Of a stretch of 32,000 nt of DNA, positions 1 to 32,000 are shown piece by piece. Position numbers and translations under genes: made by a program. The stretch's first letter is position 1. Every line of letters begins with the position of its first letter. The notes beneath the pieces were generated by a model. It searched no databases. It was given only the letters and a program-made list of their open reading frames with translations, and was not told where the DNA came from. The DNA comes from Candidatus Saccharimonadota bacterium (GTDB taxonomy: Bacteria; Patescibacteriota; Gracilibacteria; BD1-5; UBA6164): assembly GCA_965227835.1 (NCBI GenBank), contig OZ245768.1, positions 1,260,001 through 1,292,000 on the forward strand, in the 5' to 3' direction.

Positions 1-1
1 C

Positions 2-508
2 ACAATATCAAGAGGTTTGAACTATTATACATGAACCGTAATGGAAACTTTTATAGTTTGAGCTGAAAATATATGAAGTATAGCTTCTGGTGGTAGGTAT
101 GAAAATTTATGTTCTAGTTTTTCTTGAGACAAATATCCTTGAGTATGATGTAGTATTTGATTATCAAGATTAATATCAATATTATCAGGTTTGTGAAAGA
201 TAAATTATGATATTAAAACTGTAAGTAGTGTTTTGGTCTTAAACACATGAAAGGAATTTCTTCAAAAAAATTTAGAAATAGTTAAATATCTAAGGGAAGA
301 GTGAATAAATACAGAGTTTTATTTAGATAGTGAGACAAAATTAGCCAAACAAATTAAGTATGCTGATAAAAAATGAATAAGGTTTGTGATAATCAATTGA
401 GAAGATGAAATGGAGAAGAACCTAATGAGTATAAAAGATTTAAAAAAGGGTGAACAATACAGTATGAAAATAAATGAAGTTAAAAGTGTAATTTTAGGCA
501 CTAAATAA
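2..508 (+). CDS. hisS: histidine--tRNA ligase, C-terminal part (5' end outside window)
   Basis: The frame is open from the window edge if TGA=Gly. Translation [88 protein letters not shown] matches the class-II HisRS motif-3 region plus the anticodon-binding domain. TAA stop at 506-508. 13 in-frame TGA by hand count. Confidence 0.9.
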
Positions 509-650
509 AAACATATTAACATATACTATATATAAGTAGTTTTATTATGATATGTATAAATAACAAGTAAAATTAAAAATATCCTCATTATAAACTGGGG
601 ATATTTCTTCAAAAATAGAAACTTTTTAGACTTTTCATAAACCTTAATAG

Positions 651-675
651 CAAAAGGCTAAAGTCCTTTGTTGAC
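651..675. repeat. short palindromic intergenic repeat (GCTAAAGC-core family), copy 1
   Basis: CAAAAGGCTAAAGTCCTTTGTTGAC, abutting the AI-2E gene stop. Confidence 0.7.
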
Positions 676-681
676 AAAAAA

Positions 682-1842
682 CTACTTCTTACTAGCTATA
701 GCCTTTTTCGTTTTTAGCTTACTTATAGCTCCATCAAAATCTTTTAATAGCTCTGCTATAAAATAAAACAAACTTACTCATATAAGAAGCCCTGCTATTC
801 AAAATAGTCTTTCTCAAATAAAAAGTATCAAGAAAGTCAAGCTTAGAGGAAGTTTTAAAAAATTAGAAAATATTTTAGGGTTTAGGTAATATGCTTCTAT
901 GGTGTGTATTATTATTATAAGAAGTATTATTGCTATTACCATAGCAATTGATCCAGTTGAAGAATAAGCTACTATCAAAATAGGTATACTAGATAAAAAC
1001 ACTCAAAGTACAGGTACAAATCAAAATATAAAAACAACTAGTCAAAGTGTCAGTAAATAGGGAAATCATATTCACTGCATAAAAACACTTCATATTATAA
1101 ATAAACCTATAGATGTTAAAACAGTATTAATGAGAGCAATTAATGATTGAGCTTTTATTATTAATCCAAAACTTCTTATTATTTTGTCAAAAATAATCTT
1201 GTACTCATTATATAAAAAAGAGAAGTTAGATTTTTTTATTCATGATAAATAACTTTTTAATCTTTTTCTATCAAGTAAAAAAACCAAACTTAAAATCAAA
1301 GAAAAAACTATTTGCAAGAGTACTATTCAAGCACTTTTAGCTCTATTAAAAATTTCTATAAAGAGTTTGTAGTCACTACTTGAAAAAGCCTCTTTCAAGG
1401 TAGAACCTATTTCTGTATAATCCTTGTTTATATTTCATAAAAAAGCTTTTATATTGTTAAGCTGGTCTTGTAGTATGGGTATAGTATTAGCTAAACCTGT
1501 TAATTCTGATTGAATTTTTGGTACAGCCCCACTTATTATAGAAATAAAAATAAGTAAAAATAAAAAGTACTCTATTACTATTATTAGGTTTAAACTGAAA
1601 TATTTTTTGAAAATTGTTTTACTTGAATTACTTTTTAATTTTTTACAAATTATATCTTCTACTTTCTCTTTTAAAAATTTAGCAATAGAGTAAAAAAGGT
1701 AAGCAAATATAAATGTTAGAAAAAATATTATTATAAAATCACTAAAAGAAAACAAAATCAGTAATAAAATACCATAAGATATAGCTTTGTAGTAAAAAGA
1801 TTTTGTGAAAATAAGCGATGTGATTTTATTTAATTCTTTCAT
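682..1842 (-). CDS. AI-2E family (PerM/UPF0118-like) membrane transporter
   Basis: Track ORFs 1435-1842 and 814-1002 plus the gaps between them share one frame and are interrupted only by TGA. 386 aa, multi-TM. FVPVLGVFLSSIPILIVAY..IIHTIEAYYLNPKIF resembles the conserved C-terminal core of AI-2E permeases. TAG stop at 682-684. Confidence 0.75.
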
Positions 1843-1954
1843 ATTTAATTTAAATATTCTAATTTAAAAAATTATTTTTTGATATATTTCTTGATTTATA
1901 GAATGAGAAATTTGAAATAATAAGTTTTTTGCCTAAACATAATAAAACAAAAAT

Positions 1955-3289
1955 TTAAAAAAACTTAATTTTATCTGCATTTGGATGTTCTTTTAATTTT
2001 TCAAGTGTTTTTGCCTCAATTTGCCTTATTCTCTCTCTTGTAACTCAAAAATCTCTTCAAACTTCTTCAAGGGTATGAACATCTCAACCATCAAGTCAAA
2101 ACCTCATTATTATTATCTTTTTTTCCCTTGGAGACAAGAAATCAAGCATTTCATACAGGTTTTCTTTCAATAAGTTCATATTTGTTTGATCATCTGGAGA
2201 AACATTTTTATCGTCTTCAATAAAATCTCATAAACTTGTATCTTCTTCTGATCATACAGGAGAATCTAAAGACAATATATCCTGAGATATTCTCATTATT
2301 TGTCTTATTTTTTTTATATCTAAATCAAGCTCCGTTGCCAACTCTTCCAAAAGGGGTTCTCTTGTAAGTTCCTGAGTCAGTCTCCTATAGGTGTGAGTGA
2401 ATTTATTTATAGTCTCAATCATATGTACAGGAACTCTAATTGTTCTTGATTGATCTGCTATTGCTCTTGTAACTCATTGACGAATCCACCATGTTGCATA
2501 TGTGGAAAACTTAAATCATTTATCAGGATCAAATTTATCAACTGCCCTGAATAGTCATACATTTCATTCCTGTATTAAATCAAGAAGTCAAAGTCATCTT
2601 CACATATATTTTTTAGCAATTGACACAACAAGTCTTAGATTTGCTGCTGCTAATTTTTTTCTAGCTTCTTGATCACCTGCTCTTATTTTTTTTCAAAGTG
2701 TTATTTCTTCTTCTCAAGTCAAAAGCTCTACTCTACCTATTTCATTTAAATACATTCTTATAGAATCATCGCTTATTTCTGTAAGAGATATAGATTCTTT
2801 TTTTTCTTTTTTTCATTTTTTGTCTAGTTCAAATAGATTTGCTTTTTCTAAATTATCAACTATATCAACTTTTAACTGAAGAAACCTTATATAAACTTCA
2901 TCAAGTAAGTCTAGATCTTCTTCTGCATTTGGTATAGCAGACATAAGTTCATCTTGTGTAATCCTACCTTCTTTTTTCCCTTTTATCATCAGTTCTTGAA
3001 TTCACTCAGGCATATCTTCCAAAAACTTTTTAGGTACTTCTATATCAATAAATTTTTGCAATCATTTACCTATTCTTCTTCTATCTTCACTTCTATCTTT
3101 AAGCATTTTATCTCATTTTCTTTCTTTTCTACCTGATCATACAATACTAGTTTTTTCAACTAGTTTTCAGTTTTCAATACTAACATCAACCATTTCTTCT
3201 TCAGGTTTTAGATTATCTAAAAGTAAAGAATCTAAGTCAATTTCTTCTATGTTGTCTAGATTTTGATTATCATCTTTTTGTTTTGTCAT
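1955..3289 (-). CDS. rpoD: RNA polymerase primary sigma factor
   Basis: 444 aa when TGA=Gly. Motifs: [66 protein letters not shown] (regions 2-3) and [48 protein letters not shown] (region 4). ATG at 3289, TAA at 1955-1957. Confidence 0.93.
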
Positions 3290-3566
3290 TGGTATTTTTA
3301 AGTAATTATAATATTTTTGTTTAATTTAAATTTTTTATATCAAGGGATCAAAATTTGAGAAAGGAGTTCAAAGTTTCAAACTAACTTTATACTTAGGAGT
3401 TAGAAAAATAATCAGGCTTTTATTTGGAAGAAGTTAATATGAGGCATTAAATAGGAAATTAAAGTAATTTAAGGAAGGTGCGGAAAAGTTCATTTAAAAG
3501 AAAAAATAGGGTAGAAAAAAATTGATTTAAAAAAATAATTTTTGTTTTTTAAATATTTTCTTAAAT

Positions 3567-4112
3567 CTATATTTTCATTATATCTTCTGTTTTCTTTTTC
3601 AGGTGATTATCTATATCTTTGTTTGCTTCATCTACTAGTTTTTGTAACTCTGCTTCTAGGTCTTTTTTTTCATCTTGGGAAATTTCTTTTTCATCTTCCG
3701 AGGTTTTTACTTTTTTCATAACATCTGCTCTGTAGTTTCTTACAGATATTTTAGCTTCTTCTGCCATTTTTTTTGCTACTTTTGATAATTCAATTCTTCT
3801 ATCTTCCGTCAAACTAGGAATTTTTATAATTATACTGTCTGCCATAGTTTGAGGGTTTAATCAAAGTCCTGATTCTGTTATTGATTTTGCTATAGCTCAT
3901 AGTATAGTTTTATCCCAAGGTTTTATATTTAGGGTTTGAGAATCCATACAGGAAACAGAAGCAGTATTTTTTATGGCTTGCATACTTCAATACTGTTCTA
4001 CCATTATTCATTCTACAAGATTTGGGTTTGCTCTTCCTAGCTGTAGTTTAGAAAATTCTATTTCTAGGTGATTAATTGATTTCTTAATACCTTCTTTTAG
4101 TTTTTCAAGCAT
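3567..4112 (-). CDS. frr: ribosome recycling factor
   Basis: Track ORF 3567-3845 (IKIPSLTEDRRIELSKVAKKMAEEAKISVRNYRADVMKK) extends upstream through 4 TGA codons to ATG 4112. The N-terminus LQLGRANPNLVEGIMVEQYGSMQAIKNTASVS..LNIKPWDK is typical of RRF. 181 aa. Confidence 0.9.
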
Positions 4113-4174
4113 AAGTTTTTATTATTTTTAGTTGGCAGGCATTATATAAAATTAGCCCTTATTGTAAAGAAAAT

Positions 4175-4202: not shown

Positions 4203-4267
4203 TGTTTCCACAAATTTTTTTTGAAAATCAACTATTTTAGCCTATTTTGAAAGGTTTTTATAGTGTT

Positions 4268-4346
4268 GCGGGGGTAACATAACAGAGTGAGTGTACTAAG
4301 GCTTCAACCCTTGGGTGTGCGAGTTCAAACCTCGTCCCCCGCTCCA
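4268..4346 (+). tRNA. tRNA-Gly(UCA), the TGA-decoding tRNA of genetic code 25 (CCA encoded)
   Basis: Cloverleaf folded by hand. Acceptor GCGGGGG/CCCCCGC, discriminator T then CCA. T arm GCGAG-TTCAAAC-CTCGT. Anticodon arm TAAGG-CTTCAAC-CCTTG with anticodon TCA at 4304-4306, U33 and A37. 5-nt variable loop. G1:C72, C2:G71, G3:C70 and U73 are the bacterial GlyRS identity set. Confidence 0.85.
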
Positions 4347-4358
4347 AATAATAAACTA

Positions 4359-4398: not shown

Positions 4399-4426
4399 AA
4401 ATTTATTTAATTAAAAAATATTTAAG

Positions 4427-4858
4427 ATGATAAATCTCAAACCTTATATATGACTTACAAATATGATGGTTCTTGCTACAAAAGATACATTAGGAAATCC
4501 ATATACTTCAAATGTCTATTTTAAATGTGATGAATGATATAAGTTTTACTTTGAATCAAAAATAGATAGGGAACATTCAAAGCATATTTTAGACAATTGA
4601 TTGGTAGCTTGGAGTGTTTTGAATACTGAAAAATATAAAGAAAGCGATAAAGATAAAAAATGATTACAATTTCAATGAAAAGCTCGTGTTCTTGTTTGAG
4701 ATGAAGCTGAAGAAATTAGCAAGAAAATATATTGAGCAAATGTAAGTTTTACTGAAATGCAAGAAGATGGTCATCATATATTTGAATGTAATCCCGAAAA
4801 GGTAAAAATATGGGATGAAGAAATATATAATGGTGATGGAAAATTGTTTAAATTTTAA
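4427..4858 (+). CDS. pyridoxamine 5'-phosphate oxidase-like FMN-binding split-barrel family protein
   Basis: 143 aa with TGA=Gly. MMVLATKDTLGNPYTSNVYF..FESKIDREHSKHILDNGLVAWSVL..GLQFQGKARVL resembles the PNPOx-like fold family. Assigned from motif memory only. Confidence 0.6.
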
Positions 4859-4865
4859 GAAAATT

Positions 4866-5489
4866 ATGAAAAAAATATTTTTAGCTTCCCAAGCATGGGA
4901 AACAATGGATAAATTTATAGATTTTTTTCAATGTATACCTTGAGAAATGATAGTTTGATTTATCTCTACAGCTGGAGATGTTTATAGAAATAAATCATTT
5001 ATTGAAAAAGATAGAAATAAGCTTTTGGAACTATGATTTAATGTTATTGACATAAATATAGATTGAGAAAAAAGAGAGTCTATTGAAGAAAAAATGAAAA
5101 ATATAAATATTATTTTTGTGGCATGAGGAAATACTTTTTATTTATTGGAGAAAGTAGTTTCTTCGGGTTTTGATAATATAATTCGTGAATTTGTAGAAAA
5201 TTGAGGTTATTATATAGGTTCAAGTGCCGGTTCAGTTATCGTATGAACAGATATTGAATTAGTAAAATCAATTGATAATCCTGATGAGGCAAATATTTCA
5301 AACTTTGAAGGGATAAAACTATTTGATAAGATGATATTACCTCATTATGATAAGGGATGATATCAAGATAAGATGAACAAAATAATACAAAAATATGGAA
5401 ATTTAAAAGGATGAATTGTTACATTAAATGATAATCAAGCTTTGGCTATTAAATGAGATTATACTCAAATGCTATTTGCAGACTCTTAA
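4866..5489 (+). CDS. peptidase S51 (dipeptidase E-like)
   Basis: 207 aa. IIFVAGGNTFYLLEKVVSSGFDNIIREFVENGGYYIGSSAGSVIVGTDI carries the GGNT and G-S-S-A-G nucleophile-elbow signature of the PepE family. TAA stop at 5487-5489. Confidence 0.8.
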
Positions 5490-5510
5490 TTATTTCTAAA
5501 TTAAAACAAT

Positions 5511-7494: not shown

Positions 7495-8100
7495 ACACTA
7501 AACCACCAGCTCTGCTGGTGCGAGTAGTGCAGGTTTTACCGTTCCGGTAGTTGTGTATAATCTTCTAGGAAGCACCTAGGAGGGGAATAACTTTTTAAAA
7601 ATATGTCCCACAAATACGCAAAGCAGTCCCATGTGAATTGGGACTGCACTTACCACATAGTGGTGGTACCAAAGTACCGAAAAAAAATACTTTTTCAATC
7701 AGTTAGAAAAGATATACGAGACACATTTCATGAACTTGCAAAGAGATATGATTTTGAGATATTAAAATGAAATATAACGATAGATCATGTTCATCTCGTT
7801 TTGAGGATATCTCCAAAATACTCTGTTGCAGAAATTCTGTGAAGATTGAAATGAAAGAGTGCAATAATACTTCATAACAAACATAGTAAGAAGAAATGAC
7901 TGTACTCGAAGAATTTCTGGAGTAGATGATACTATGTAAGTACAGTTTGACTTGACTTGGATATGATAAAAAATTATGTTCAACATCAGCAACATAAGGA
8001 TAAAACCATTGATGGAAATCAGTTAGATTTAAACTGGTAAAAACTATTTTAGCCCCTTCTAGGGGCTTCCATTTAAAGCTACCAGTTCTACTGGTAGATA
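7495..8100 (+). mobile_element. IS200/IS605-family element A (TnpA only; ends approximate)
   Basis: The tnpA gene is flanked by related subterminal hairpins: CACCAG-CTCTG-CTGGTG (7504-7520) and TACCG-TTC-CGGTA (7537-7549) on the left, AGCCCC-TTCT-AGGGGCT (8051-8067) and CTACCAG-TTCT-ACTGGTAG (8079-8097) on the right. There are no terminal inverted repeats, as expected for this family. Confidence 0.7.
7603..8040 (+). CDS. tnpA: IS200/IS605 family Y1 (HUH) transposase TnpA
   Basis: 145 aa. HVNWDCTYHIVVVPKYRKK..ITIDHVHLVLRISPKYSVAEILGRLKGKSA..FWSRGYYVSTVGLD shows the HUH motif and the catalytic Tyr region. 6 TGA=Gly codons. Confidence 0.9.
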
Positions 8101-8124: not shown

Positions 8125-8823
8125 TTTATTTCAACACATCGGGATAAAAACCCCTATCTTTAGATAGTTAAGACACGGAAGGTGTAAGTGATAGAAATTG
8201 AATAAATGAGATGTGTTGTGACATAGGGTTTTAAACCCCGTTGCCTTCAGGCCGATTCTAAAGAAAAAAGTGTAAAAAATCAATAGAATAAATAAAATAG
8301 TGTTAAAAACTAACACTAGAGAGAATGAAATACCAAAAAAGTAGTCATGCGACATATGATGTCAGATACCATATAGTATGGATAACAAAATACAGAAATC
8401 CATTCATGACAAAAGAGATACAAGATAGATTGGAAAAGATCATAAGATGAATAAGTAAAAAGCTATGAGTAATAATAATAAAGATATGAATGGAAGAAGA
8501 TCATGTACATATGTATTGTAGGATACCGTTAACTAAACCAATATCTACAATAGTATGACATATAAAGTGAGAAAGTTCTAAGGCAATAAAGAGGTATTTT
8601 TACAAAGAAATTAAGAGATGGTATTGGAAGACATGAAATATATGGTGAGTATGATATTTTGTATCTAGTGTATGAGAGATAAATTGAGAAATAATATCTA
8701 ATTATGTGGAACAACAGTGAGAAGAAGAGAATAAGATTGAAGAGATAGAGCTTTAAATTTCAGTACAAATAAAAGCCCCGTGCCTTCAGGCCGGGGTAGA
8801 AGAAAAGCTAAAACTTTTTTACT
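8125..8823 (+). mobile_element. IS200-like element B, copy 1 (apparently intact)
   Basis: 699 bp repeated at 12066-12763 with only 3 differences by eye. Related imperfect hairpins around GCC-TTCA-GGC lie near both ends (about 8237-8254 and 8776-8797). Stem-loop AGTGTTA-AAAAC-TAACACT (8299-8317) sits just before the tnpA start. Confidence 0.85.
8325..8756 (+). CDS. tnpA: IS200 family Y1 (HUH) transposase TnpA
   Basis: 143 aa. SSHATYDVRYHIVWITKYRNPF..MEEDHVHMYCRIPLTKPISTIVGHIKGESSKAI..NIWGVGYFVSSVGEINGEIISNYVEQQ. 12 TGA=Gly codons. TAA stop at 8754-8756. Confidence 0.9.
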
Positions 8824-9853: not shown

Positions 9854-9864
9854 ATAAAATATTC

Positions 9865-10561: not shown

Positions 10562-11761
10562 GTCTGTTGCGTTTTGATTTTAAAAAGAGTTTTAATTAAA
10601 AAATGTAGTAAATAGATGAAAAATTTATAAGTTTCATCTATTTTTTGTTAAATTATAATCATATTTATATAAAATTTAGGATTTTAGACACAATCCACCT
10701 AAGGAAACTAACCTAGGTTATTCGGATTTCCTCTAAAACAACCAATCTTTTGAGATTAAAAGATATAGCCTCCATAAATGCAGTAAACTGGTTTTTTACT
10801 ACAGACTTATACCTCACTCTATGATTCATTTTTGAAAATACCCTCTCATAAGGAGATCTAAGTTTAGAATAAAACTTATCTTTATCCTTGTTCTTATCTT
10901 TCATATTATTTTTCTTTATTGCACATAGATGTAATCACTTCTTTTTTGTTGATATTACAGCCGGTCAAATACAATATCACTTATCAGCATATACTGCTCA
11001 TGAACTTGGTAATACATGCTTCATTCACTTTGCATCTGTTACATTAGCTTGAGTTATAGCTATCTTGTTTATCATTCAAGATTGCATATCAACACTAGCA
11101 TGTTTTTTATAACCATACCAAAATTTATTTTTTCACTTAGATCAAATTTTAGCTTCCTTATCATTAGCAACTTTTGGAAGAGTTTCATTATTCATTTTTT
11201 CATATCATTCTTTTATTCATTTATCTCTTTCTTCCCATAAATTAGCTTTAGTAACTAAATGAGAAGCATCTACAAATGTAAACACTTCACTCATATAACC
11301 CTTATTTGATAATTGATTTTTTAAATCTTCAAATATCTTTGATAGTTCTTTTGTTCATATCTTTTTTCTTGCTCTTGAGAATATACTATGATCTGGAGTT
11401 TTATCTGTTAATTTAAATCAGCAAAACCATTTACCAGCTAAATTTTCTGCAAGATATTTCTCTAACTCTCTATCTGATAGATCTTCCATAAACTGGATTA
11501 GTAAACATAGAAATAATTTTTTTACTCAATATCATACATGAGTTTTTCATAGATCTATATTTTTTAGTATTTTATTTACTCAATCAAAGTTCCACAATTT
11601 CTTAAATTTACGATATTGATGATTTTCTGGAATTAGCTCGTTTAGGATAACAAAACTTATTTGATTTGATTCTCACATAGGTATTTTCTTAGAATATAAT
11701 TACTATCTAATTATATCTCTTTTTTCTCTTTTTAATAGTCAAAGTTTAATTTACAACAAGC
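10562..11761 (-). mobile_element. IS5-family insertion sequence (IS903-group-like), 1200 bp
   Basis: Imperfect terminal repeats GTCTGTTGCG (left) and GCTTGTTGTA (right, reverse complement). It is flanked by 9-bp direct repeats ACATAAAGG (10553-10561) and TCATAAAGG (11762-11770), 8/9 identical. A 12-bp-stem hairpin at 10610-10643 lies downstream of the transposase stop. Confidence 0.8.
10713..11678 (-). CDS. IS5 family DDE transposase
   Basis: 321 aa with TGA=Gly. LIQFMEDLSDRELEKYLAENLAGKWFCGFKL..PDHSIFSRARKKIG (DUF772-like N-terminus), FVDASHLV, KFWYGYKKHASVD..ITQANVTDAK, AVYADKGY, RSPYERVFSKMN..NQFTAFMEAISFNLKRL. Confidence 0.9.
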
Positions 11762-12065: not shown

Positions 12066-12763
12066 TTTATTTCAACACATCGGGATAAAAACCCCTATCT
12101 TTAGATAGTTAAGACACCGAAGGTGTAAGTGATAGAAATTGAATAAATGAGATGTGTTGTGACATAGGGTTTTAAACCCCGTTGCCTTCAGGCCGATTCT
12201 AAAGAAAAAAGTGTAAAAAATCAATAGAATAAATAAAATAGTGTTAAAAACTAACACTAGAGAGAATGAAATACCAAAAAAGTAGTCATGCGACATATGA
12301 TGTCAGATACCATATAGTATGGATAACAAAATACAGAAATCCATTCATGAAAAAGAGATACAAGATAGATTGGAAAAGATCATAAGATGAATAAGTAAAA
12401 AGCTATGAGTAATAATAATAAAGATATGAATGGAAGAAGATAATGTACATATGTATTGTAGGATACCGTTAACTAAACCAATATCTACAATAGTATGACA
12501 TATAAAGTGAGAAAGTTCTAAGGCAATAAAGAGGTATTTTTACAAAGAAATTAAGAGATGGTATTGGAAGACATGAAATATATGGTGAGTATGATATTTT
12601 GTATCTAGTGTATGAGAGATAAATTGAGAAATAATATCTAATTATGTGGAACAACAGTGAGAAGAAGAGAATAAGATTGAAGAGATAGAGCTTTAAATTT
12701 CAGTACAAATAAAAGCCCCGTGCCTTCAGGCCGGGGTAGAAGAAAAGCTAAAACTTTTTTACT
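12066..12763 (+). mobile_element. IS200-like element B, copy 2 (ends intact, transposase dead)
   Basis: 698 bp, collinear with 8125-8823. The differences are G/C at 8177 vs 12118, a 1-nt deletion (C8410 missing between 12350 and 12351), and C/A at 8502 vs 12442. Confidence 0.85.
12266..12696 (+). pseudogene. tnpA pseudogene (frameshift plus HUH His-to-Asn)
   Basis: The 1-nt deletion after codon 28 runs into a TAA about 10 codons later. Independently, the first His of DHVH is changed to Asn (CAT to AAT at 12441-12443). Confidence 0.8.
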
Positions 12764-12832: not shown

Positions 12833-14116
12833 CTATTCCTTAGGTATAGATATAGCAGGATTTAGATTTATACTTGTTTTATCATTTTTGTTTGAACCAC
12901 AAAACACAACTTTTGAAATATCAGGTAGAAATAAATCAAGATCTTTTTGTTCTATACTATTTTCTTTACCTTCCTCTCTATCTTTTCTTATTGCCACATA
13001 CATTTCATAAACTTTTAATCTATTGAGAGTTTCTATTCTTAGTTTTTTAGTAGAAATATAGTTGTAAATTAAAAAAGATAAAAGAGTAAAAAAGAGCAAA
13101 GAGCTAGGAAGTAGAAAATAAATAAATTTATTAGAGGTTTCTATAAAATCTTTTATTTCTTGAAAATGGAATATGACTAAACTAACACTTAAAATTAAAT
13201 AAATTATTAATGCTAAAAGCCAGATTCTCTCTGCTCCAAAAAAACCAGAATCAAGAAAAAATTTTTTAGTTTTTCCCCAAAAATTTTCCCCTTTCTTCTC
13301 TCCATATAAAAGTTCTTTTAGTGGTTTTGAGAAGCCTTTAACACTTTCTAATTTTTCTTGGTCTTTCTTAAAAATTTCCCATAATTCTTTATATTCATTT
13401 GAAGATTTTGAGATTTCTTTTTCTGCTTCTTCATATTTTCCAAGTTTATCTAGATAAATAGCTTTATGGTAATAAGCCTTATAGTAATATGGATTTATTT
13501 TTATTGCTTTTTCATATTGTTCTACTGCTTCTTCATATTTCCAGAGTTCAGCCAAAGTATTCCCCTTATTATGGTAGGCTTCAGCATAACTTGAATTTAT
13601 TTCTATAGCTTTATCATATTCTTTTATTGCATCTCCATATCTTTTAAGGTTCTTTAACGATATACCTCTATTATTATAAGCCTCAAAATAATCTTTTTTT
13701 ATTTTTATAGCTTTATCAAGCTCTATTATAGCTTCCTCAAATTTTTTAAGTTTATTTAGGCAAAGCCCCTTATTATTATAAGGAAACACAAATTCAGAAT
13801 TTATTTTTATAGCTTTATCATACTCTTTTATTGCCTCTTCATATTTTCCAATTTCTTCAAGACAGTATCCTTTGTTATTATAAGCATAATGAGATTCAGG
13901 ATTTATTTTTATAGCTTTATCATACTCCTCTATAGCTTCCTCATATTTTCTAAGTTCAGACAAAGAAACACCTTTCCAATAATAAGCTTCAAAATAATCT
14001 TCTTTTATTTTTATAGCTTCATCATATTTTTTTATAGCTTCTTGGTGATTTCCTAAAGTACCCAAAGAATAACCCTCATCAAAATATTTCTTAGCATTAT
14101 CATTTACTTCACTCAT
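12833..14116 (-). CDS. TPR-repeat protein with C-terminal transmembrane segments
   Basis: 427-aa uninterrupted ORF. About 7 tandem 34-aa repeats (EEAIKEYDKAIKINP..AYNNKG.), then two hydrophobic helices. 19 Gly, none encoded by TGA. Confidence 0.85.
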   Translation of the reverse strand: MSEVNDNAKKYFDEGYSLGTLGNHQEAIKKYDEAIKIKEDYFEAYYWKGVSLSELRKYEEAIEEYDKAIKINPESHYAYNNKGYCLEEIGKYEEAIKEYDKAIKINSEFVFPYNNKGLCLNKLKKFEEAIIELDKAIKIKKDYFEAYNNRGISLKNLKRYGDAIKEYDKAIEINSSYAEAYHNKGNTLAELWKYEEAVEQYEKAIKINPYYYKAYYHKAIYLDKLGKYEEAEKEISKSSNEYKELWEIFKKDQEKLESVKGFSKPLKELLYGEKKGENFWGKTKKFFLDSGFFGAERIWLLALIIYLILSVSLVIFHFQEIKDFIETSNKFIYFLLPSSLLFFTLLSFLIYNYISTKKLRIETLNRLKVYEMYVAIRKDREEGKENSIEQKDLDLFLPDISKVVFCGSNKNDKTSINLNPAISIPKE

Positions 14117-14133
14117 ATTTCTATTAATTAATT

Positions 14134-15612
14134 CTAAAAAGTATTTCTCTCTATAAATTCACTTGCAATTTTTTTCATCTCTATCAATTCCTCTTCACCC
14201 TTTTTTTCAAGCATTTTCGTCATCATACTCATCCTGACATTTTTCTCAAAAACTTTTTTATTATCATCTATAAAACTCCAATAAAGTGAATCCAAAACTC
14301 TACACCAGCTGTCTTTTTTATAATTAGACATCTTTAAAATATAGTTACTCCCACAAATATAAGGCTTTGTAGCAAAAACTCATCCATCACTATATTGCCC
14401 CATCCCATAAACATTTCCATACATAACCCAATCCAAACTATCTACAAACATTTCCATAAACCACCTATAAACCTCATCAGGTTTAATTCTACACAAAAGC
14501 ATAATATTTGAAACAACCATAAGCCTGTCAATATGGTTTAAATAACCGTATTTAACTACCTTTTTAATAGTATTATCAAGAGGTAATATCCCAGTTTTAC
14601 CATTGTACCAGTTATTATTTAGTCTATTCTTATGATTAAAAAAATTCTTATTTAAAGAGAAATTGTTATAAACTCCCCTCATAAACTCCCTCCATCCAAT
14701 TACTTGTCTTATAAAACCCTCAATATTGTTTATCTCAACATTATTTTGTGTAAAATATTCAAGTATTCTTGAAACCACATATTTTGGAGATAAAAGCCCA
14801 GAGTTTAGATAAGGAGAAATAACACTATGAAACAAAAAAGTTTCTTCATCTATTGAATCTTGATATTTTCCAAAATATTGAAACCTCTCATCCAAAAACT
14901 TATCAAACCATACTTTGCAAGTCTCAAAATCAGTTGCCAAATAAAAACTATCACTCTCTCAAAAATTATCCTTGAAATATTTATCGACTATTTTTTTCAC
15001 ATCTTCTAAATTCCTGTTTTCTATATCCATTTTAATTTGAGGGATAAAAGTGTTTTTTGGAAGTTTTTTTCTATTCTCACTATCAAAACTCCATTTATTA
15101 AAAAGAGGTTTTTTGTTATCATCTACCAATACATTTAGCTTTTTTCTCATCAAAATATAAAACGAATTCATAAAAGGTTTATTTAAAGCATCTTTTAAAT
15201 ATTGTCTGAAATCATCATTTGAACATAAAAAATTTGGACTTTCAATCATTTCAAGATCAATTTTTTTTGTATTACAAAAACTCTCAATCCTATTTCTAAA
15301 AAACTTATCTTCTATAAAATAAGTTTTTATTTTTTCTATGTTTTTTTCCAAACAAACCTTTTCAAGTTTTCCCTCAAAACTCAAATTAAAATCTTCTTCA
15401 ATTTCTATATAGCTAAGATTAAAATTTTGAGAAATAAGAAAATCTCTATAATTTCTCATAGAAGCAAGAAAGAAGATTATTTTGTGTTTATGAAATTTAA
15501 AATGAGTGCAAAGACCATAATCTTCACACATAAAAAATAAATCTTTTCTTTTTGGATTTAAAAAGCTCAAATCAGAAAAAAGCTGGTTACCTAAAATTAA
15601 ATTTAGATTCAT
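14134..15612 (-). CDS. cryptochrome/photolyase-related protein (COG3046-like)
   Basis: Track ORFs 14959-15612, 14380-14940 and 14134-14331 are in one frame, joined by 2 TGA codons. 492 aa. FGKYQDSI..LFHSVISPYLNSGLLSP..IRQVIGWREFMRGVY..GYLNHIDRLMV..ATKPYICGSNYILKMS..WCRVLDSLYWSFI fits the photolyase-related family. Confidence 0.8.
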
Positions 15613-15635
15613 AAAAACATTTAATAAAAATACAC

Positions 15636-16524: not shown

Positions 16525-17517
16525 TTATACGATAGAAATTGATTCATTCTTGAAATTTGAATTTACTTTTTCCAAAATTACTGTTGCCGTTTCCGTTTCA
16601 TTATTACAATCTTCACTTTTCTTTACAATTTCCCAATACCCAGCACCACTTGTTTCACCATCAGCTATATTTTGATATATTCCTATTTTTCCCCTTGGAA
16701 TTTCTTTTAACGATGTTACATATATCATATCAACTAGTTTAGAGTCCCCAATCTTAATCCTCAAAGTATCTCCAATAAGCTTATTTCCAAATTTATTTTT
16801 AAACTTATTGTTATCTTTTACAGAAATTCTAACATTACCAAATTTGTCGGAGAAGGCAAACTCTGCGAGATTTTTTTGTTGCGGAATTACATCTGGATGT
16901 TGTCCTGATTTTTTTCTTTCTAATAATTCTTCCACACTCTCGTATTGAAAGATTGGCTCTAAGATTTCGGGGAAGTATCTTGTTGTTGCAATAATAGAAG
17001 AACGAAATTGTTCACGAGTTCAGTCGGTAACATATAGCTTTTCATTTGGAATGCGATACAAGGCAAGAATTTTATTTCGTGTTTCAAGGGCCTGCAACCT
17101 TGTTAGTGGTACAGCATAGATTTCTAACCCGTTGTTTGTAATTGCCAAATGAAAATTTTCACCGTTTTTACCACCAGCAGTTGTATGGCTATTTCTATCT
17201 GCTTTGTTCACAATAGAAATTACTGCTTTGCCCGAGAAATCTCGATTAACTACTTTTCCAGTTTTTTTCTGAATTAGTTTGATAATTCTCTGTTGTTCTG
17301 CGATCAAGTCATTGAGCAAATTTATTCCATAGTCAGCCAGTTTTGGATTTTGACCAATAGGAAATCTTAAATCTGAAAAATTTCCAAGATTGCGAGTTGT
17401 GGCTGTTAATTCTGCATCTAGATCTATAGGATTTTCTGCAAAAACATCGTTAAAATGAACTATCCCACTTGTTGAACGTTCAAGTAAGTATTGATATGGT
17501 TTTATTATTTTTGTCAT
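16525..17517 (-). CDS. hypothetical protein, 330 aa (the C-terminal part is faintly like the DUF62 SAM-hydrolase beta-barrel)
   Basis: Track ORFs 17020-17517 and 16525-16935 are in frame, joined by a single TGA at 17020-17022. It looks visibly more G+C-rich than its surroundings. SDKFGNVRISV..GDTLRIKIG..IPRGKIGIYQN recalls the D-x-FGN C-terminal domain, but this is a weak motif-level impression only. Confidence 0.65.
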
Positions 17518-17586
17518 GGTTTTTAAAAAATTAAAAATAAAATAACATGTAGTAAATAAGTTGCTTTATGTCCTTATTTGTTGAAA

Positions 17587-24080: not shown

Positions 24081-24118
24081 AAAACTCACCTAATTTTACT
24101 TTTATAAAAATATAAAAT

Positions 24119-24664
24119 ATGGCACAAAAAAAACCTGAATGGTATGTAATACAAGTTATATCTTGAACAGAAGAAAATGTAAAATCATCTATATTCCAAA
24201 GAAGAGAAAGTCTAGATATGGAAGAATATATATTAGATGTTTTTATCCCTACTCACGAAGTTATTTCTACAAGGGTATCATGAGAACAAGTAAGTAAACA
24301 AAAAAATATTTTACCATGATATATACTTGTAAATATGATTGTTACAAATGAGAGTTGGTATATAGTTAGAAACACTCCAAATGTTACATGATTTCTAGGA
24401 GCATGAAATATACCAGTACCTGTTTCTGGAGAAGAACTTGAAAAATTAAAATGAAAAATAGAAGAAAATGCTACAGTATACAATACAAAATTTTCTAAAT
24501 GAGATCAAGTTGTTATAAGATGAGGAAGTTTTGAATGAAATACATGAGTTATATCAAAAATAAATGATAAAAAAGCTACAGTAACGGTTATAATAAGTTT
24601 ACTTTGAAGAGATACACCATTAGAATTAGATTTTTCTGAAGTACAACTAAAGAATAAAAAATAA
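24119..24664 (+). CDS. nusG: transcription termination/antitermination factor NusG
   Basis: 181 aa. PEWYVIQVISGTEENV..ILPGYILVNM..WYIVRNTPNVTGFLGAGNIPVPVS..FSKGDQVVIRGGSFEGNTGVISKI (KOW). 12 TGA=Gly codons. Confidence 0.92.
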
Positions 24665-25439: not shown

Positions 25440-25480
25440 ATTAAAATATTATTTTTACTTAAATATTAATTAAAAAAATT

Positions 25481-25960
25481 ATGGCAGAAAAAATACTTGT
25501 TACCAAGGAATGATTAATAAAGTTAGAAAAAGAACTAAAGCATTTAAAAGAAGTAAAGAGAAAGGAAATAGCTGAAAAATTGAAAGAAGCGATATCTTTT
25601 TGAGATTTATCAGAGAATTCTGAATATGAAGATGCTAGAAATGAGCAAGCAGCAATAGAAAAAAGAATACTTGATATAGAAACAGATCTTAAAAATATTG
25701 AAATAATAAGTGAAGATAATAGTTCAAAAGATAAAGTTACAGTATGAAGTACGGTTGAAATAGAAAATATTTCAAATAAAGAGAAAGAAGAATTTAAAAT
25801 AGTTGGTTCAACAGAAGCAAATATATTATCAGAACCTCCTAGAATATCAAATGAATCATCTATATGAAAAGTTCTTTTATGAAAAAAGAAGTGAGATACA
25901 GTTAAAGTCGTTTCCAATGCTTGAACGATCCAATATAAGATAAATACTATTAAAAAATAG
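25481..25960 (+). CDS. greA: transcription elongation factor GreA
   Basis: 159 aa. [101 protein letters not shown]. Confidence 0.92.
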
Positions 25961-25976
25961 TTTATATTAAAAAAGG

Positions 25977-26393
25977 ATGAGTATGAATTTTTATTACGAA
26001 TATATACTGATAATACCTTTTATAGCTTTTGCTCTAAGCATATTTATAAAGGGTTTATTTTCATATTTATCAAAATGAAAACTTGATTTAAGCATAGCTT
26101 TTTGAAGTTGATGAATGCCATCTGCACATACTGCCGTATCTGTATCTCTTACTACTGCATTTGCTTTGAAATATTGAATAACAAGTGATTTATTTGCTTT
26201 GGCACTTTCATTTACTTTGATAATAATATATGATGCTATAAATGTTAGATATGAAGCATGACTCCATGCTTGAGCATTAAATAAGCATATTTGAGAAAGA
26301 AGATTTAGGGAATCTTTGGGGCATTTACCAAGTGAAGCTTTTGCCTGAAGCCTTGTGTGAATTGTTGTAGCTACAATACTTTATTATTTGTAG
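25977..26393 (+). CDS. divergent PAP2 (DUF212/YuiD-like) membrane protein
   Basis: 138 aa. FGSGGMPSAHTAVSVSLTTA..IIIYDAINVRYEAGLHAGALNKHI..ESLGHLPSEAFAGSLVG matches the GGMPSSH..YDA.GVR..GH.P.EV pattern. Confidence 0.8.
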
Positions 26394-26564: not shown

Positions 26565-26733
26565 CAAAAAATAAAAATTACTTATTTAAAATAGTCTGAC
26601 TTACAAGTTAGTTTAATATAAAGTAAAAATTAAGTATATTTTTTATAAAAATTTTGGTAGATTTGATGAAGAAGTTTTTTATTTGACTTAAATCTCAAAA
26701 ACAATATAATATATTAATTAAAAATATAATAAT

Positions 26734-27186: not shown

Positions 27187-28308
27187 TTATATCTTTAAAG
27201 GCATTATTATATGAGTGAAATCTCAAGACTTTTTGTTTTTAGAATCATCTATAGGCTCTATTAGTATAGGTGATAATGCTGATTCAAAACTTATAGATAT
27301 ATGAGTTGCGTCTATTACTCAAAGAACCTCTAAAAAATATACAGAATTAATTCAAACTATATTATCTTCTCACTGTATAGATCAATTTAGTCTTGTCTCT
27401 CATTCTCAAATTTGAGTCTCATTAGTCTCCAAAACAATTCAATTTTCTCAACTAAAACTCATTTTTATAGAATAGTTATTCTCACGACTAAAAAGGTTTA
27501 TTTTTTTAAGAGCTTGTATTAAATCCGTTTTATTTACTTCAGCTTTTGTAGAATATGAATCTGGAAAAAACCTCTTATAATCTGGGAAATTTCAGTTTAA
27601 CAACCTAGAATAAAATTTGATATTTTGCGAAAAAAAAGCTAATCATGACTCTCAAGATACTATTTTTACATCATCTTCTGGTTTTATTATATTTTTAATT
27701 TCTCAAGCTGTTTTACTAGGTATTATAGCACTAAAGCTTGTTGAATTTTTATCTTTTAAACTTTTTTTGTATTCGCTCAATCTAAGCGTATCAGTAGAAG
27801 CAAAAACTGCTTCTTTTTCATCTATATTTACAAATATTCATGCTAAAGTAGGTCTTATATTTCATTCTGCTGATGAAAAAAGAGTCTTTTGTATTGATTC
27901 TATAAGGGTTTCTCATTTTATATTCAAAGATAGTTCTTCTTTTATACTTGGTATCAAAGGAAACTCTTCTGACTCTATTCATTTTATCTTTATTTTAGAA
28001 CTTTCAGAAATTACTTCGATACTACTACCTTTAAGTTCAATTTCTACCTCATTATCAAGTAGTAAACTTATATAGTTTGTAAAAAGTTTTGAAGGCAAAC
28101 AATAAGAACCTTCCAATGCTACCTCTAAATCTTCTTTTATTACATATTCTATTGCTGTATCTAAATTGTTTGATATTAAAACTATGTTATCAAAGTTTAC
28201 TTTTACAAGTATATTTTCAAGAATAGGTGTTGTTGATATAGAAGAAACAGCATGATTTACTATATCTAAACCTTTTTTTAATTCTTTGGTGTTTATTTTA
28301 AACTTCAT
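27187..28308 (-). CDS. dnaN: DNA polymerase III subunit beta (sliding clamp)
   Basis: Track ORF 27979-28308 (MKFKINTKELKKGLDIVNHAVSS..TPILENILVKV) continues through 17 TGA codons to TAA 27187-27189. 373 aa. GIESEEFPLIP, RPTLAGIFV, ASTDTLRLSEY, LNGNFPDYKRFFP, FTHIIMPLKI. Confidence 0.92.
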
Positions 28309-28681
28309 TTTCTAAATTACTTTTTAAATTAGTGAGCTCTACGAAATTTCTTTGTTAAGGAAAGGCTGAAGAATTCTTTAATTTCTACTAAAATAATAAA
28401 TTTTTTAAATAATTTTTGAGTGAAAATTAGCAAAAAAGATTATTTTTTTCAAATGCTCCTCTGTTCTAATTTATATAAAAAACAACTATTTTTTCAAGAT
28501 ACAAAAAAATTTTTATGTTAAAAAACCATTTAATACTTATCTTATTTAATCCAAAATCTGATAAAAATGTATGATTTTTCAAATAAGAATTATTATTTAT
28601 AAATTTTTAATGTACATATTTTTGAAATAATTTTAATTATATGTTATATTTTTATTACTTTAATATTTAATATAATAAAAA

Positions 28682-29959
28682 ATGAATAAAAATATAGAAG
28701 ATGAAACTTCTCAAAGACCTGATGAAGATATAAATAAATCAGAAGGAATAGACACAACTAGAGAAATAAAACGTAGAATATTGGCTATTAGAGATTGAAA
28801 AAATCCAGAGAGTTGAGAAGAATCAATAGATAGATTCAGTAAATTAAAAATGTTGAAGCAAATAAAAGGTTCTTGGGATTATATATCTTATTATAAAGAT
28901 GATTTTATATTCGTCAGAAAAGGTAGAAAATGGTGATTTGTTGATAAAGAATGAGGCTTGATTTCAGATTTGTATGATGGGATAATGAGATTCTCAGAAG
29001 GTTTTGCTGTAGTTAGAAAAGAGGGAAAATGTGGACTTGTTGATAAAGAATGAAACTTAATTTCAGATTTGTATGATGAAATAACAAGATTCTCAGAAGA
29101 TTTTGCTGTAGTTGAAAAAGATGAAAAATGGTGATTTATTAATAAAAAATGAGAAGAGGTTTTAGGAGGTATAATCTATAATAATGTATGGTATTTTTCA
29201 GAAGGTCTTGCTCCGGTCGAAGAATATGGATGGTGATTCATTGATAAAAATTGAAAAAAAGTTTGAAAATGTTCTTATGATTATGTTAGTAATTTTTCAG
29301 GAGGTTTTGCTGCAGTTAAAAAAGGTAAAAAATGGGGATTTATTGACAAAGATTGAAATGAAGTTTTAGGAGGTATAATCTATAATCATGTATATAATAG
29401 TTTTTCAGGAGGTTTTGCTGCAGTTAAAAAAGGTGAAAAATGGGGATTTATTGACGAAGATTGAAATGAAGTTTTAGGAGGTTTTATCTATGATTATGTA
29501 TATAATGATTTTTCAAGAGGTTTTGCTGCAGTTGAAAAAAATGGAAAATGAGGATTCATTGATAAAGATTGAAATGAAGTTTTAGGAGGTTTCATCTATG
29601 ATCACATGGAAGGTTTTTCATGAGATTTTGCTATAGTTAAAAAAGATGGAAAATGGGGATTTGTTGACAAAGATTGAAATGAAGTCTTAGGGGACTTAAT
29701 CTATGATCGTATAGAAAATTTTTCAGGAGGTTTTGCTGCGGTTAAAAAAGGTGAAAAATGGTGATTTATTAATAAAAAATGAGAAGAGGTTTTAGGAGGT
29801 ATAATTTATGATTATGTATGAGATTTTTCATGAGGATGCAGTTTGGTTAAAAAATCTTGACAATTACCATTTTATATAAATAAAGATTGAGATATTCTTG
29901 AATATGAAGAGGGTGTAGGGATGGAACATATACACTACAAAATATTAAGTAAATACTAA
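28682..29959 (+). CDS. WG-repeat (KWG-type beta-propeller-like repeat) protein
   Basis: 425 aa. About 11 tandem units of the form Y(D/N)xVxxFSxGFAxVKKxGKWGFI(D/N)KxGxEVLGG. The G of KWG is TGA in several units (e.g. 28934-28936). Confidence 0.85.
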
Positions 29960-30264
29960 TTGTAAGAACTAAATTCTTAGTTAATATTTTTTTATCCTTA
30001 AAAATTAAGTCAAAATATCAATTAATTATATACACTCAAATCTCCCCAGTTTTTATGCTTTATAGTTTATTTTTTACCCTTATATAATTAAAAACTGGGG
30101 TTTTATATTGATTAAATTAGGTTAAATAAGTCACTTATAAAACACAAAAGATAGGAATATTTTCTATGAAAAGTAGATAGTTTTGATTTCATATATTTGC
30201 TTTTTTACACACATATATGTTAAAATTAAATTTAGTTAGATTTTTAATTTATAATTTTTTATAT

Positions 30265-32000
30265 ATGTCAGAAAATTTGTGATATAGAGAATCAAGAAAA
30301 ACTCAAAAAAACAAGGATTTTATACAATCATTAGAAAAAAGCTTAGAAGATTCAAATATAGATACTAGAGAAGCTAAAGAGCTGAGAGAAAAATATGAAG
30401 AAATAAGAGAGGCTAGAAATCAAATATTAGCAATAACAAAGGATGAACTGAAATCTCTTGCTAGATGATTAAACATTGATGAAAACTCTAGTTTGGGAAA
30501 AACTTTAAATAAGCTTATAGAAAAATCCCAAGATCAGGGTGAGGTAATTAGCAGTCCATCAGCAAGCACTGATGCAGGAATTGCTACCCCTGCACAGGAT
30601 ATTACTAATACAGAAAGTATAGAAGATGGGAAAGCGTCTGAACTAGCAAAATGAATAGATTGAGTAGAGTATGACACAGACACAAATAATTATATTTACA
30701 AATGAGAAAGAATAAGCAGAGATGATATTGAGAATAAAGATGATCTTATAAACTGGGTAGAAGAAATTGAAGATAAGATAGCCTTAGATTTAGCAAACTG
30801 AATAAACTGAGTGGAATATGATGAAAATGGAAATCAATATAAATATAAATTAGAAGAAATAAACAGAGGTGAAATTGAAAATGAAAATGATTTAGAAGCT
30901 TGGATAGACAACATAGAAGACAAAATAGCATTGGAACTAGCAAAATGAATAGATTGAGTGGAGTATAACAGAGATTCAAATATTTATACTTACAAATGAG
31001 AAGAAATAAACAGAGATGAAATTCAAGGTGAAGATGAGCTAAAAGCTTGGATTGAAGAGATGGATAAGAAAATAAGAGAATGATTAATAGCAGATTTTTG
31101 AATTGATGAAAACATATCAGAAATAGACAGTTTGGATAAAAGTTTTGCTGAATATGGTTTAGAGGGAGGGATTTTTAATCTTTTAGAAAAATATAATAGC
31201 TATATAGAAGATAAACTATCTTGATTAAAACCTGAAATTTTAGAAAAAATAAAACAATCTATATGAATAAGAATTCTAAATCTTAGGGAATCTATAAATG
31301 AAATGGAAGAAAGAATAGATAGCCTATGAGAACAAGATCAAAAGAGAAACTATCGTTGGATACTAAATTCTAAAATTCAAGAACATTTTTCTGAAATAAA
31401 CAACAAAATACTTCCAAGCGCATTATTATTACTTCAACATACAAATTGAAATATAGATTATGATAAAATAGATTTGAAAAGACCTGTATATTCTAGTCCT
31501 AAAGGACCCTGAGATTTGGGTGGGCAGACTATTTTGAGATATGAAGAATTGAGCACAAAGAAAAAAGAAGAAAAAATAAAATACAAGATAGCACAAATAG
31601 AAGAAATGTTTTCAGCTAGTTTAGATTATAATTGAGAGTTTGATGAATTTTGAATAGAAACATTTAATCAGTCAGGTACTTTGGAAATAGATGAAGAAGA
31701 AGATTTGGCTATTTTTAAAGGTATATGATGAGATAGGGATTCTTTGGCAGATATTGATTTTTTAAATGAAGCGGACAAAGAAATTGAAACTGAGGCTACT
31801 ATCGCATATTTTTCATATGTACTTATTTGTTTGGTTCCCTATATATGAGCTGCTGCAGCTGTTCCTAGTGATTTAGTAGATTTATTCTCAAATGAAGAAT
31901 GAGTATCAAAAATTTTAAGAGAGATGTGAGCTATAAATGAGGATTACAGAATGGAGAAATCTCTAATTGATAATATTTTATGATGAGTTTGATTACTATT
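30265..32000 (+). CDS. large repeat-containing hypothetical protein (3' end outside window)
   Basis: Open to the window edge with TGA=Gly (more than 578 codons). Coiled-coil-like N-terminus, three 49-aa tandem repeats, and a hydrophobic segment IAYFSYVLICLVPYIGAAAAV near the edge. Confidence 0.7.
30640..31080 (+). repeat. 3 x 147-bp in-frame tandem repeat inside the 30265 gene
   Basis: Units are 30640-30786, 30787-30933 and 30934-31080. Each encodes (E/D)LAxGIxGVEY(D/N)xxxNxYxYKxExIxRxxIxxExxLxxW(I/V)xxxExKI. Confidence 0.8.

Follow-up and report, generated by a model that had tools for sequence, protein, structure and literature searches.

Evidence that a 32-kb window from a probable Candidatus Gracilibacteria genome uses genetic code 25, with a candidate tRNA-Gly(UCA) among its recoded genes

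We analyzed a window of 32,000 nucleotides, i.e., one whole stretch of DNA with a GC content of 26%, and conclude that it is almost certainly written in genetic code 25: it would belong to a Candidatus Gracilibacteria genome in which UGA is translated as glycine through a dedicated tRNA-Gly(UCA) and UAA and UAG are the stops. The original prediction had assigned the window to code 25 and not to codes 11 or 4. Its observation is confirmed and its interpretation as code 25 is supported, and the tests that it proposed, as run here, all favored table 25 over tables 11 and 4. The use of UGA for glycine as in NCBI table 25 has been known since 2013 and is not a new finding. Since the reassignment is established, with a table of its own and validation by proteomics, the worth of the window is practical: it offers a compact worked example in which recoded genes and the decoding tRNA are neighbors. 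In the mechanism that we propose, UGA would be decoded as glycine by the dedicated tRNA-Gly with anticodon UCA encoded at 4268-4346, and translation would be terminated by UAA and UAG only. Knowledge of the lineage suggests that this tRNA would be charged by GlyRS and that release factor 2 would be absent; no prfB was found in the 32-kb window, which is the part of the genome covered here. In this AT-rich genome, TGA has risen to the majority glycine codon, accounting for 56% of the Gly codons.

To quantify the effect of TGA on reading frames, we computed how many kb of the window are covered by stop-to-stop ORFs of at least 200 aa. Table 11 yields 3.5 kb; with TGA as sense the figure rises to 22.4 kb, and freeing one of the other stops brings far less, 8.4 kb (TAA) or 3.5 kb (TAG). 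Gene models with TGA as sense cover 81% of the window. The 27 models comprise 8467 codons, among which 287 (3.4%) are in-frame TGAs, with 4-21 of them per housekeeping gene (Table 1). TGA is the commonest glycine codon (287 TGA vs 227 GGN). When it is read as Gly, the models contain 6.1% Gly and 0.7% Trp; when it is read as Trp, these values become 2.7% and 4.1%. All 26 complete models end in TAA (16) or TAG (10), the only stops that had been predicted. Under the standard code, hisS, rpoD, frr, nusG, greA, and dnaN are broken, every break is a TGA, and the longest pieces left in these genes are 35-110 aa, within the bound of 160 aa given previously. The claim that table 11 shatters the genes holds for most of them, so that a table 11 annotation of the region would break most genes, but not for the TPR gene, which has no TGA, nor for the photolyase-related, orf16528, and EamA genes, which have one or two.

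Table 1. Features of the window and their in-frame TGA codons. Bits are Pfam scores with TGA read as Gly vs Trp.
Feature	Coordinates	Strand	Details
hisS, C-terminal part, cut by window edge	2..505	+	12 TGA, including 32-34; Pfam tRNA-synt_His, HGTP_anticodon
AI-2E family transporter	685..1863	-	12 TGA; 119.5 vs 80.1 bits
rpoD, primary sigma factor	1958..3325	-	21 TGA, including 2564-2566; 25-species panel, PDB alignments
frr, ribosome recycling factor	3570..4118	-	4 TGA
tRNA, anticodon UCA, putative UGA decoder	4268..4346	+	ARAGORN; Rfam tRNA model 46.2 bits
PNPOx-like protein	4415..4855	+	7 TGA; 44.6 vs 28.4 bits
Peptidase S51 (PepE-like)	4806..5486	+	10 TGA; 121.5 vs 96.4 bits
IS200-type Y1 transposase, copy a	7591..8037	+	ORF list; 6 TGA, two CGA
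IS200-type Y1 transposase, copy b	8307..8753	+	11 TGA, no GGN
IS5-type DDE transposase	10716..11699	-	17 TGA, including 10977-10979
Second copy of IS200 copy b, 5'-truncated	12286..12693	+	Direct repeat; ORF list
TPR-repeat protein	12836..14120	-	No TGA, 19 GGN
Photolyase-related protein (DPRP)	14137..15645	-	2 TGA, 17 GGN
YaaA	15615..16418	+	5 TGA
orf16528, conserved hypothetical protein	16528..17565	-	1 TGA, 20 GGN, GC 32%
nusG	24116..24661	+	11 TGA
greA	25463..25957	+	7 TGA
DUF212 (divergent PAP2)	25971..26390	+	10 TGA; 116.4 vs 79.5 bits
dnaN, sliding clamp	27190..28311	-	17 TGA, no TGG
WG-repeat protein	28679..29956	+	22 TGA, including 28934-28936; 41 GGN

The identity of the amino acid was assessed from homologs using the standard code. 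We aligned 66 in-frame TGAs of six housekeeping genes with such homologs; 26 of them sit where every reference sequence has Gly, and none sits on Trp. The original prediction placed TGAs on universally Gly residues, which is right for these 26; around 60% of the TGAs examined are in columns that vary and are uninformative either way, and a few coincide with a conserved residue other than Gly. The latter are an Ala at RpoD 95 and a Val and a Lys in DnaN, relative to distant homologs; the residues at RpoD 53 (Asn in 22 of 25) and 57 (Gln in 20 of 25) are majority residues, not invariant ones. For DnaN, the protein for which this was checked, Gly-type states predominate in the Val and Lys columns among Gracilibacteria orthologs. 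In the RpoD panel, which comprises 25 standard-code species, TGA occupies eight of the nine near-invariant Gly columns (P = 4e-11) and TGG both invariant Trp columns. PDB alignments of DnaN, NusG, Frr, GreA, and HisRS, with just 3-4 distinct species per protein, yielded another 19 TGAs at positions where only Gly occurs, and none at a Trp. In the PDB sequences shown, such invariant positions include six in HisRS, four in NusG, five in DnaN (110, 157, 240, 301, and 314), and two in Frr, at Y-Y-G and L-G-L-N-P; in GreA a TGA lies on the Gly of G-D-L-x-E-N and others fall on further conserved Gly positions. Taken as a whole, the homologs have mainly Gly and never Trp at in-frame TGAs, i.e., the columns point neither to Trp nor to an inconsistent set of residues. 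The four TGAs highlighted in the original prediction were found where they had been described (Table 1), in the contexts Y-Y-T-[TGA] (hisS), L-I-Q-E-[TGA]-N (rpoD), A-D-K-[TGA]-Y (IS5 transposase), and K-W-[TGA]-F (WG-repeat protein). The last of these proteins also contains its own comparison, since the codon of W-[G]-F in its eight sister repeats is split evenly between TGA and GGA, with four of each; the presence of GGA in sister units had been noticed.

Profile scores lead to the same amino acid. For 97 TGAs in 15 Pfam families, the summed bits are 1317 for Gly, 1200 for Ser, 1187 for Ala, 1120 for Cys, and 1060 for Trp, and Gly exceeds Trp in 21 of 21 families when six further ones are included. 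The WG_beta_rep profile scores 251.1 bits with Gly and 149.5 with Trp. A scan of the 20 amino acids on the RpoD panel gave 369 for Gly, 346 for the runner-up, and 329 for Trp.

We then compared codons with those of relatives. The closest one (L081) has 92-100% protein identity with TGA matched to TGA (76-95% by tblastn) and shows two TGA changes only. As it is too close to be informative, we used the more distant L001 and L083 for codon exchange. Against L083, which uses the standard code, TGA pairs five times with GGA, once with GGG, and once with TCT, while TGG pairs nine times with TGG and with nothing else. Four of the GGA pairings are in YaaA, whose ortholog on L083 is 76% identical. In the conserved part of rpoD from the Gracilibacteria L001, TGA corresponds to GGA or GGT seven times and to TGG never. 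Across 119 DnaN orthologs of the lineage, TGA and GGN states are mixed inside single columns. The best 120 DnaN matches have W in 91 cases and G in 28 at TGA, following the translation table of the source; since the residue depends on the table used, these matches are a readout of TGA/GGN exchange only.

The candidate decoder has a 7-bp acceptor stem, a 5-bp T stem, a short variable loop (4-5 nt), and an encoded CCA. Between its D stem and anticodon stem lies one additional nucleotide, which can lengthen the latter to 6 bp. ARAGORN, led by the anticodon alone, calls it 'SeC' with the bacterial table; with table 25 the label is 'Gly'. Bacterial tRNA-Sec has an 8/5 acceptor/T-arm form, with an 8-bp acceptor stem and a long extra arm. 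The 7-bp acceptor stem and the lack of a long arm in tRNA(UCA) do not fit this architecture. Selenocysteine recoding would also entail rare UGA at specific sites, unlike the 3.4% of codons counted here. Its identity elements are G1:C72, C2:G71, G3:C70, and a discriminator U73. Glycine acceptors are expected to carry G1:C72, C2:G71, G3:C70, and U73, whereas G73 is expected in a Trp acceptor (Shulgina & Eddy 2021, PMC8629427). Judged from its sequence, the tRNA matches the glycine rule exactly, in all four elements, and its U73 and G1:C72 do not agree with Trp identity. The related loci yielded no tRNA(UCA).

These data bear on other readings of TGA. In genetic code 4, used by Mycoplasma and some insect endosymbionts, TGA would be tryptophan. 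This code lengthens ORFs exactly as table 25 does, and a large public protein collection applies it to the source genome and its relatives. It is nevertheless extremely improbable here: the conserved Trp columns examined are all TGG, Trp scores below Gly in all 21 Pfam families (257 bits lower over the first 15), the Trp content would reach 4.1%, and the tRNA has U73 and G1:C72 instead of the G73 of a Trp acceptor. The column tallies, where TGA never falls on Trp, refute it. We consider it vanishingly improbable that the standard code applies, with the TGAs being true stops in pseudogenes, assembly errors, selenocysteine sites, or sites of programmed readthrough. The 'SeC' label of ARAGORN under the bacterial table would agree with recoding, but the geometry of the tRNA (7/5, with a short variable loop) is not that of tRNA-Sec, the 287 TGAs single out glycine positions in essential genes, identical TGAs are kept in relatives, and these genes contain no internal TAA or TAG. 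Damage or recoding is thereby refuted by the positional specificity of the TGAs and their conservation across genomes.

A dual use, where TGA is mostly Gly and yet terminates some genes depending on context, was considered because imported genes may originally have ended in TGA. The window itself offers nothing in its favor, every one of the 26 complete models runs to a TAA or TAG with no implausible extensions noticed, and the photolyase-related protein shares its end point with its standard-code ortholog. We regard this as highly unlikely, and keep code 25, with TGA as glycine throughout, as the reading of the window.

The mobile elements also favor Gly at TGA. The region 8125-8710 is repeated at 12066-12650 (direct repeat, 99-100% identical), giving a second copy of one IS200 transposase. 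This transposase (copy b) scores 107.7 bits with Gly and 76.3 with Trp against Y1_Tnp, and the IS5 transposase scores 55.6 vs 36.6 against DDE_Tnp_1 and 68.0 vs 58.0 against DUF772. A reassignment of CGA/CGG to Trp has been reported in Absconditabacteria and some Gracilibacteria (PMC8629427). We searched the gene models for these codons: CGG is absent and CGA occurs five times, always within IS elements or a TGA-poor gene. In IS200 copy a, a CGA is on the conserved Arg of P-K-Y-R.

TGA is unevenly distributed, and the TPR, photolyase-related, orf16528, EamA, and MFS genes form a TGA-poor set, which code 25 by itself does not account for and which calls for its own explanation. The photolyase-related gene has a 79% identical ortholog in a standard-code genome, where both of its TGAs are matched by the Gly codons GGA or GGG. 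At the single TGA of orf16528, some of whose relatives carry PF20257, 32 of 33 orthologs have Gly; this gene also has CGA and CGC codons. The EamA gene has one or two TGAs. The L083 organism, with the standard code and 25% GC, has two genes in common with the window at 76-79% identity. The TGA-poor genes might be recent imports from standard-code bacteria, a proposal to which we give slightly less than even chances. If so, code 25 would be no barrier to genes coming in, and the proportion of a gene's glycine codons that are TGA would record its residence time in the recoded genome; uneven TGA content may then help to spot recent imports in such genomes. A bolder version is that the L083 organism is a close relative of the window organism and not a donor, in which case the code would have changed recently or reverted.

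The choice of table has practical consequences. Under a table 4 annotation, more than half of the glycines become tryptophan, and such a translation corrupts searches for homologs, predicted structures, and compositional statistics in this lineage. In the large public protein collection mentioned above, the source genome and its relatives are translated in this way, with Trp where Gly belongs.

The best RpoD match is a Ca. Gracilibacteria MAG, and all organism names given among the best 120 DnaN matches are Ca. Gracilibacteria. Judging from these best matches, the window organism probably belongs to Gracilibacteria or Absconditabacteria, in line with the predicted lineage, and the closest named genomes are Candidatus Gracilibacteria. 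Among known systems, code 4 (Mycoplasmatales, Entomoplasmatales, and several insect endosymbionts) resembles the window in having UGA as sense, AT-rich genomes, and the anticodon UCA; in code 4, however, UGA stands for Trp and is read by a Trp-accepting tRNA, whereas in the window columns, profile scores, and tRNA identity point to Gly. The BD1-5/SN-2 bacterium (Hanke et al. 2014, PMC4032931) has the same candidate lineage and reassignment as the window. In this other member of the lineage, UGA as Gly was confirmed by proteomics, with 97 peptides unique to UGA-Gly vs 3 for UGA-Trp (PMC4032931). Its genome has 33% GC and its code is backed by peptides, while that of the window comes from computation. 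Table 25 itself, for which PMC8629427 cites Campbell et al. 2013 and Rinke et al. 2013, is the code of Candidate Division SR1 and Gracilibacteria. Like the window, it has in-frame UGA where glycine belongs, a tRNA(UCA) bearing glycine identity elements, low GC, stops restricted to TAA and TAG, and the Gracilibacteria lineage. No difference of substance separates the two; in the window, TGA makes up 56% of the Gly codons, and the tRNA has one extra nucleotide before the anticodon stem.

The window uses NCBI table 25, in which UGA encodes glycine. Under the standard bacterial code (table 11), the longest stop-to-stop ORF of the whole window (26% GC) has 441 aa and ORFs of at least 200 aa sum to 3.5 kb. 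With TGA as a sense codon these values rise to 916 aa and 22.4 kb, a clear coding gain in the comparison of tables that the original prediction of code 25 had proposed. The gain is specific to TGA, since freeing TAA or TAG gave just 8.4 and 3.5 kb in such ORFs, respectively. The TGA-sense ORFs recovered an ordinary bacterial gene set, comprising hisS, an AI-2E transporter, rpoD, frr, a PNPOx-like gene, a peptidase S51, MFS and EamA transporters, IS200 and IS5 transposases, a TPR protein, a photolyase-related protein, yaaA, nusG, greA, DUF212, dnaN and a WG-repeat protein, and the gene models cover 81% of the window. The four codons quoted in the original prediction are indeed TGA where it placed them, and the six housekeeping genes it named are broken under the standard code, the largest TGA-free pieces having 35-110 aa.

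For alignment with sequences of standard-code organisms, each TGA was translated as X. In RpoD, compared with 25 species of diverse phyla drawn from a genome scan, seven TGAs fell on columns with Gly in 25/25 species, and an eighth on one with Gly in 22/25. TGA occupies 8 of the 9 near-invariant Gly columns of this panel (hypergeometric P = 4e-11), GGN is left at none of them in the conserved part, and both invariant Trp columns are TGG in the window. The other proteins were compared with PDB sequences, in panels that are supporting and not decisive alone because each has three or four distinct species. TGAs lay on columns that are Gly in all PDB sequences shown in 5/17 cases for DnaN, 4/11 for NusG, 2/4 for Frr, 2/7 for GreA and 6/12 for HisRS. 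Pooled over these five proteins and RpoD, all-Gly columns hold 26 of the 66 TGAs examined. Variable columns take most of the others, and a few TGAs occupy positions at which a different residue is conserved, namely Ala, Asn or Gln in RpoD and Val or Lys in DnaN. None of the 66 was on a Trp column; the mainly-Trp alignment that the original prediction named as counting against it is thus absent.

Table 4, which reads TGA as Trp, was weighed against glycine by profile scoring. Nine conserved proteins with 97 TGAs were concatenated, one amino acid was put at every TGA, and Pfam scores were summed over the 15 families detected in all versions. Gly gave 1317 bits, followed by Ser (1200), Ala (1187), Cys (1120) and Trp (1060); it was top in 14/15 families and exceeded Trp in 15/15. 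It also exceeded Trp in six more families (AI-2E, PNPOx, DUF772, DDE_Tnp_1, YaaA and WG_beta_rep), the WG repeat scoring 251 bits with Gly vs 150 with Trp. When all 20 amino acids were scanned against an HMM from the RpoD panel, Gly came first (369 bits) and Asn second (346), with Trp at 329. Composition looks normal only with TGA as Gly, given that Trp makes up roughly 1% and Gly 6-8% of bacterial proteomes: the gene models contain 287 TGA, 227 GGN and 61 TGG codons, which makes 6.1% Gly and 0.7% Trp with TGA as Gly, and 2.7% Gly and 4.1% Trp with TGA as Trp.

Codon exchange between homologs agrees with glycine. In the conserved part of rpoD, a Gracilibacteria MAG has GGA or GGT opposite seven window TGAs, TCT opposite one and TGG opposite none. 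Against the standard-code contig L083, the photolyase-related gene and yaaA together exchange TGA with GGA five times and with GGG and TCT once each, and TGG is matched to TGG nine times. In the window itself, one Gly position shared by eight sister WG repeats is spelled TGA in four of them and GGA in four. Among 119 DnaN orthologs of the lineage, 91 appear translated with table 4 and mix W and G within single columns, including columns that are GGT in the window; the 28 translated as with table 25 have nearly all G there. TGA and GGN thus act as synonyms.

Two window proteins have 100% identical database entries, both on one contig that is presumably the source genome. Table 4 was applied to the source genome and its relatives in a public protein collection, which has Trp at every TGA. 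This is seen in three database proteins of the window (table below), and in dnaN of the closest relative, L081, where 19/19 TGA codons became Trp. One table-4 entry reads DNFWESD where a standard-code ortholog reads DNFG.

Between frr and the PNPOx-like gene the window encodes a tRNA whose anticodon is UCA. It folds into a normal cloverleaf; the acceptor stem has 7 bp, the T stem has 5 bp and the variable loop is short, and for these reasons we rejected a selenocysteine tRNA. Its acceptor stem has G1:C72, C2:G71 and G3:C70, with discriminator U73. By these four features Shulgina and Eddy (PMC8629427) call a tRNA(UCA) of Gracilibacteria and Absconditabacteria a glycine acceptor, and by G73 a tryptophan acceptor. 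From these identity elements we infer glycine as the amino acid that the window's tRNA carries. Its D loop has 10 nt. An additional nucleotide sits between the D stem and the anticodon stem and is able to pair with position 44, and in the ARAGORN drawing the anticodon stem has 6 bp.

Positions of features in the window and use of TGA among their glycine codons (TGA + GGN)
Feature	Position	Strand	TGA / all Gly codons	Table-4 database protein
rpoD	1958-3325	-
tRNA-Gly(UCA)	4268-4346	+
MFS transporter	6215-7483		4/19
IS200 copy a (third, divergent)	7591-8037	+
Direct repeat, copy 1	8125-8710
IS200 copy b	8307-8753	+	TGA 11, GGN 0
EamA transporter	8960-9871		1/8
IS5	10716-11699	-
Direct repeat, copy 2	12066-12650
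IS200, 5'-truncated copy	12286-12693
TPR protein	12836-14120	-	0/19
Photolyase-related protein	14137-15645	-	2/19	P0121
orf16528 (conserved hypothetical)	16528-17565	-	1/21	P0241
nusG	24116-24661	+
greA	25463-25957	+	TGA 7, GGN 1
Hypothetical ORF	26722-27153
dnaN	27190-28311			P0001
Remaining genes			0.43 to 1.0

The TGA share of Gly codons is very uneven among genes, and five of them (MFS, EamA, TPR, photolyase-related and orf16528) are TGA-poor. GGN is nearly displaced in core genes (TGA vs GGN: 17 vs 3 in dnaN, 7 vs 1 in greA), as in IS200 copy b. The TPR and photolyase-related genes (12836-15645) and orf16528 differ from the rest (Fisher P = 1.5e-18). The closest relative of the photolyase-related gene is on L083 (79% identity), where yaaA also has an ortholog (76%); beyond L083, identity is ~52% and named matches are from Bacteroidota, Gemmatimonadota and similar. 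Most orf16528 orthologs have just the one genuine Trp and are hence TGA-free. CGG is absent from the 8467 codons of the gene models, and every CGA (7678, 7717, 10722, 17077, 17242) and CGC (17053, 17392) lies in IS200 copy a, IS5 or orf16528, one CGA encoding the Arg that is conserved in the P-K-Y-R motif of IS200; native-looking genes have no CGA, CGC or CGG. CGA/CGG reassignment was reported for lineages related to the window organism (PMC8629427). IS200 and IS5 copies lie near the TGA-poor genes, which are probably recent imports from standard-code donors: the L083 homolog, the TGA-free orf16528 orthologs, the CGA/CGC distribution and the nearby insertion elements all fit. The yaaA gene of the window is equally close to its L083 ortholog yet its TGA share is native-like, which leaves this picture incomplete. 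The IS200-type gene (copy b) and its truncated copy form a direct repeat of ~590 bp, 99-100% identical and 3.9 kb apart, with IS5 in between.

L083 (1-21482; ENA ERZ25074195 ctg48402, 104 kb; 25% GC; contigs of cluster members reach 1.09 Mb) comes from an organism using the standard code, since 20 genes lack in-frame TGA and three of them use TGA as their stop codon. This organism could be a donor lineage or a standard-code relative. L083 and L081 come from the same metagenome.

Among 185,579 species genomes, the best RpoD locus is a Candidatus Gracilibacteria MAG (87% identity in the best segment), the next loci reaching at most 62%. The best 120 DnaN matches all have ~375 aa, and wherever they carry an organism name it is Candidatus Gracilibacteria. 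L081, an ENA metagenome contig, is collinear with the window at 21.4-28.3 kb, its proteins being mostly 92-100% identical, with TGA matched to TGA (78% for the hypothetical ORF). Gracilibacteria was among the lineages originally proposed, and the code-25 prediction, which was well argued, proves correct on alignments, profile scores, codon exchange, composition, tRNA(UCA) and lineage. The window adds no new code, as code 25 is already known in Gracilibacteria. It was put forward in 2013 for SR1 and Gracilibacteria (as cited in PMC8629427), proteomics of a BD1-5 bacterium found 97 peptides unique to UGA-Gly vs 3 for UGA-Trp (PMC4032931), and a Codetta screen recovered it in 13/15 Gracilibacteria species (PMC8629427). 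The window shares with NCBI table 25 every defining feature testable within 32 kb.
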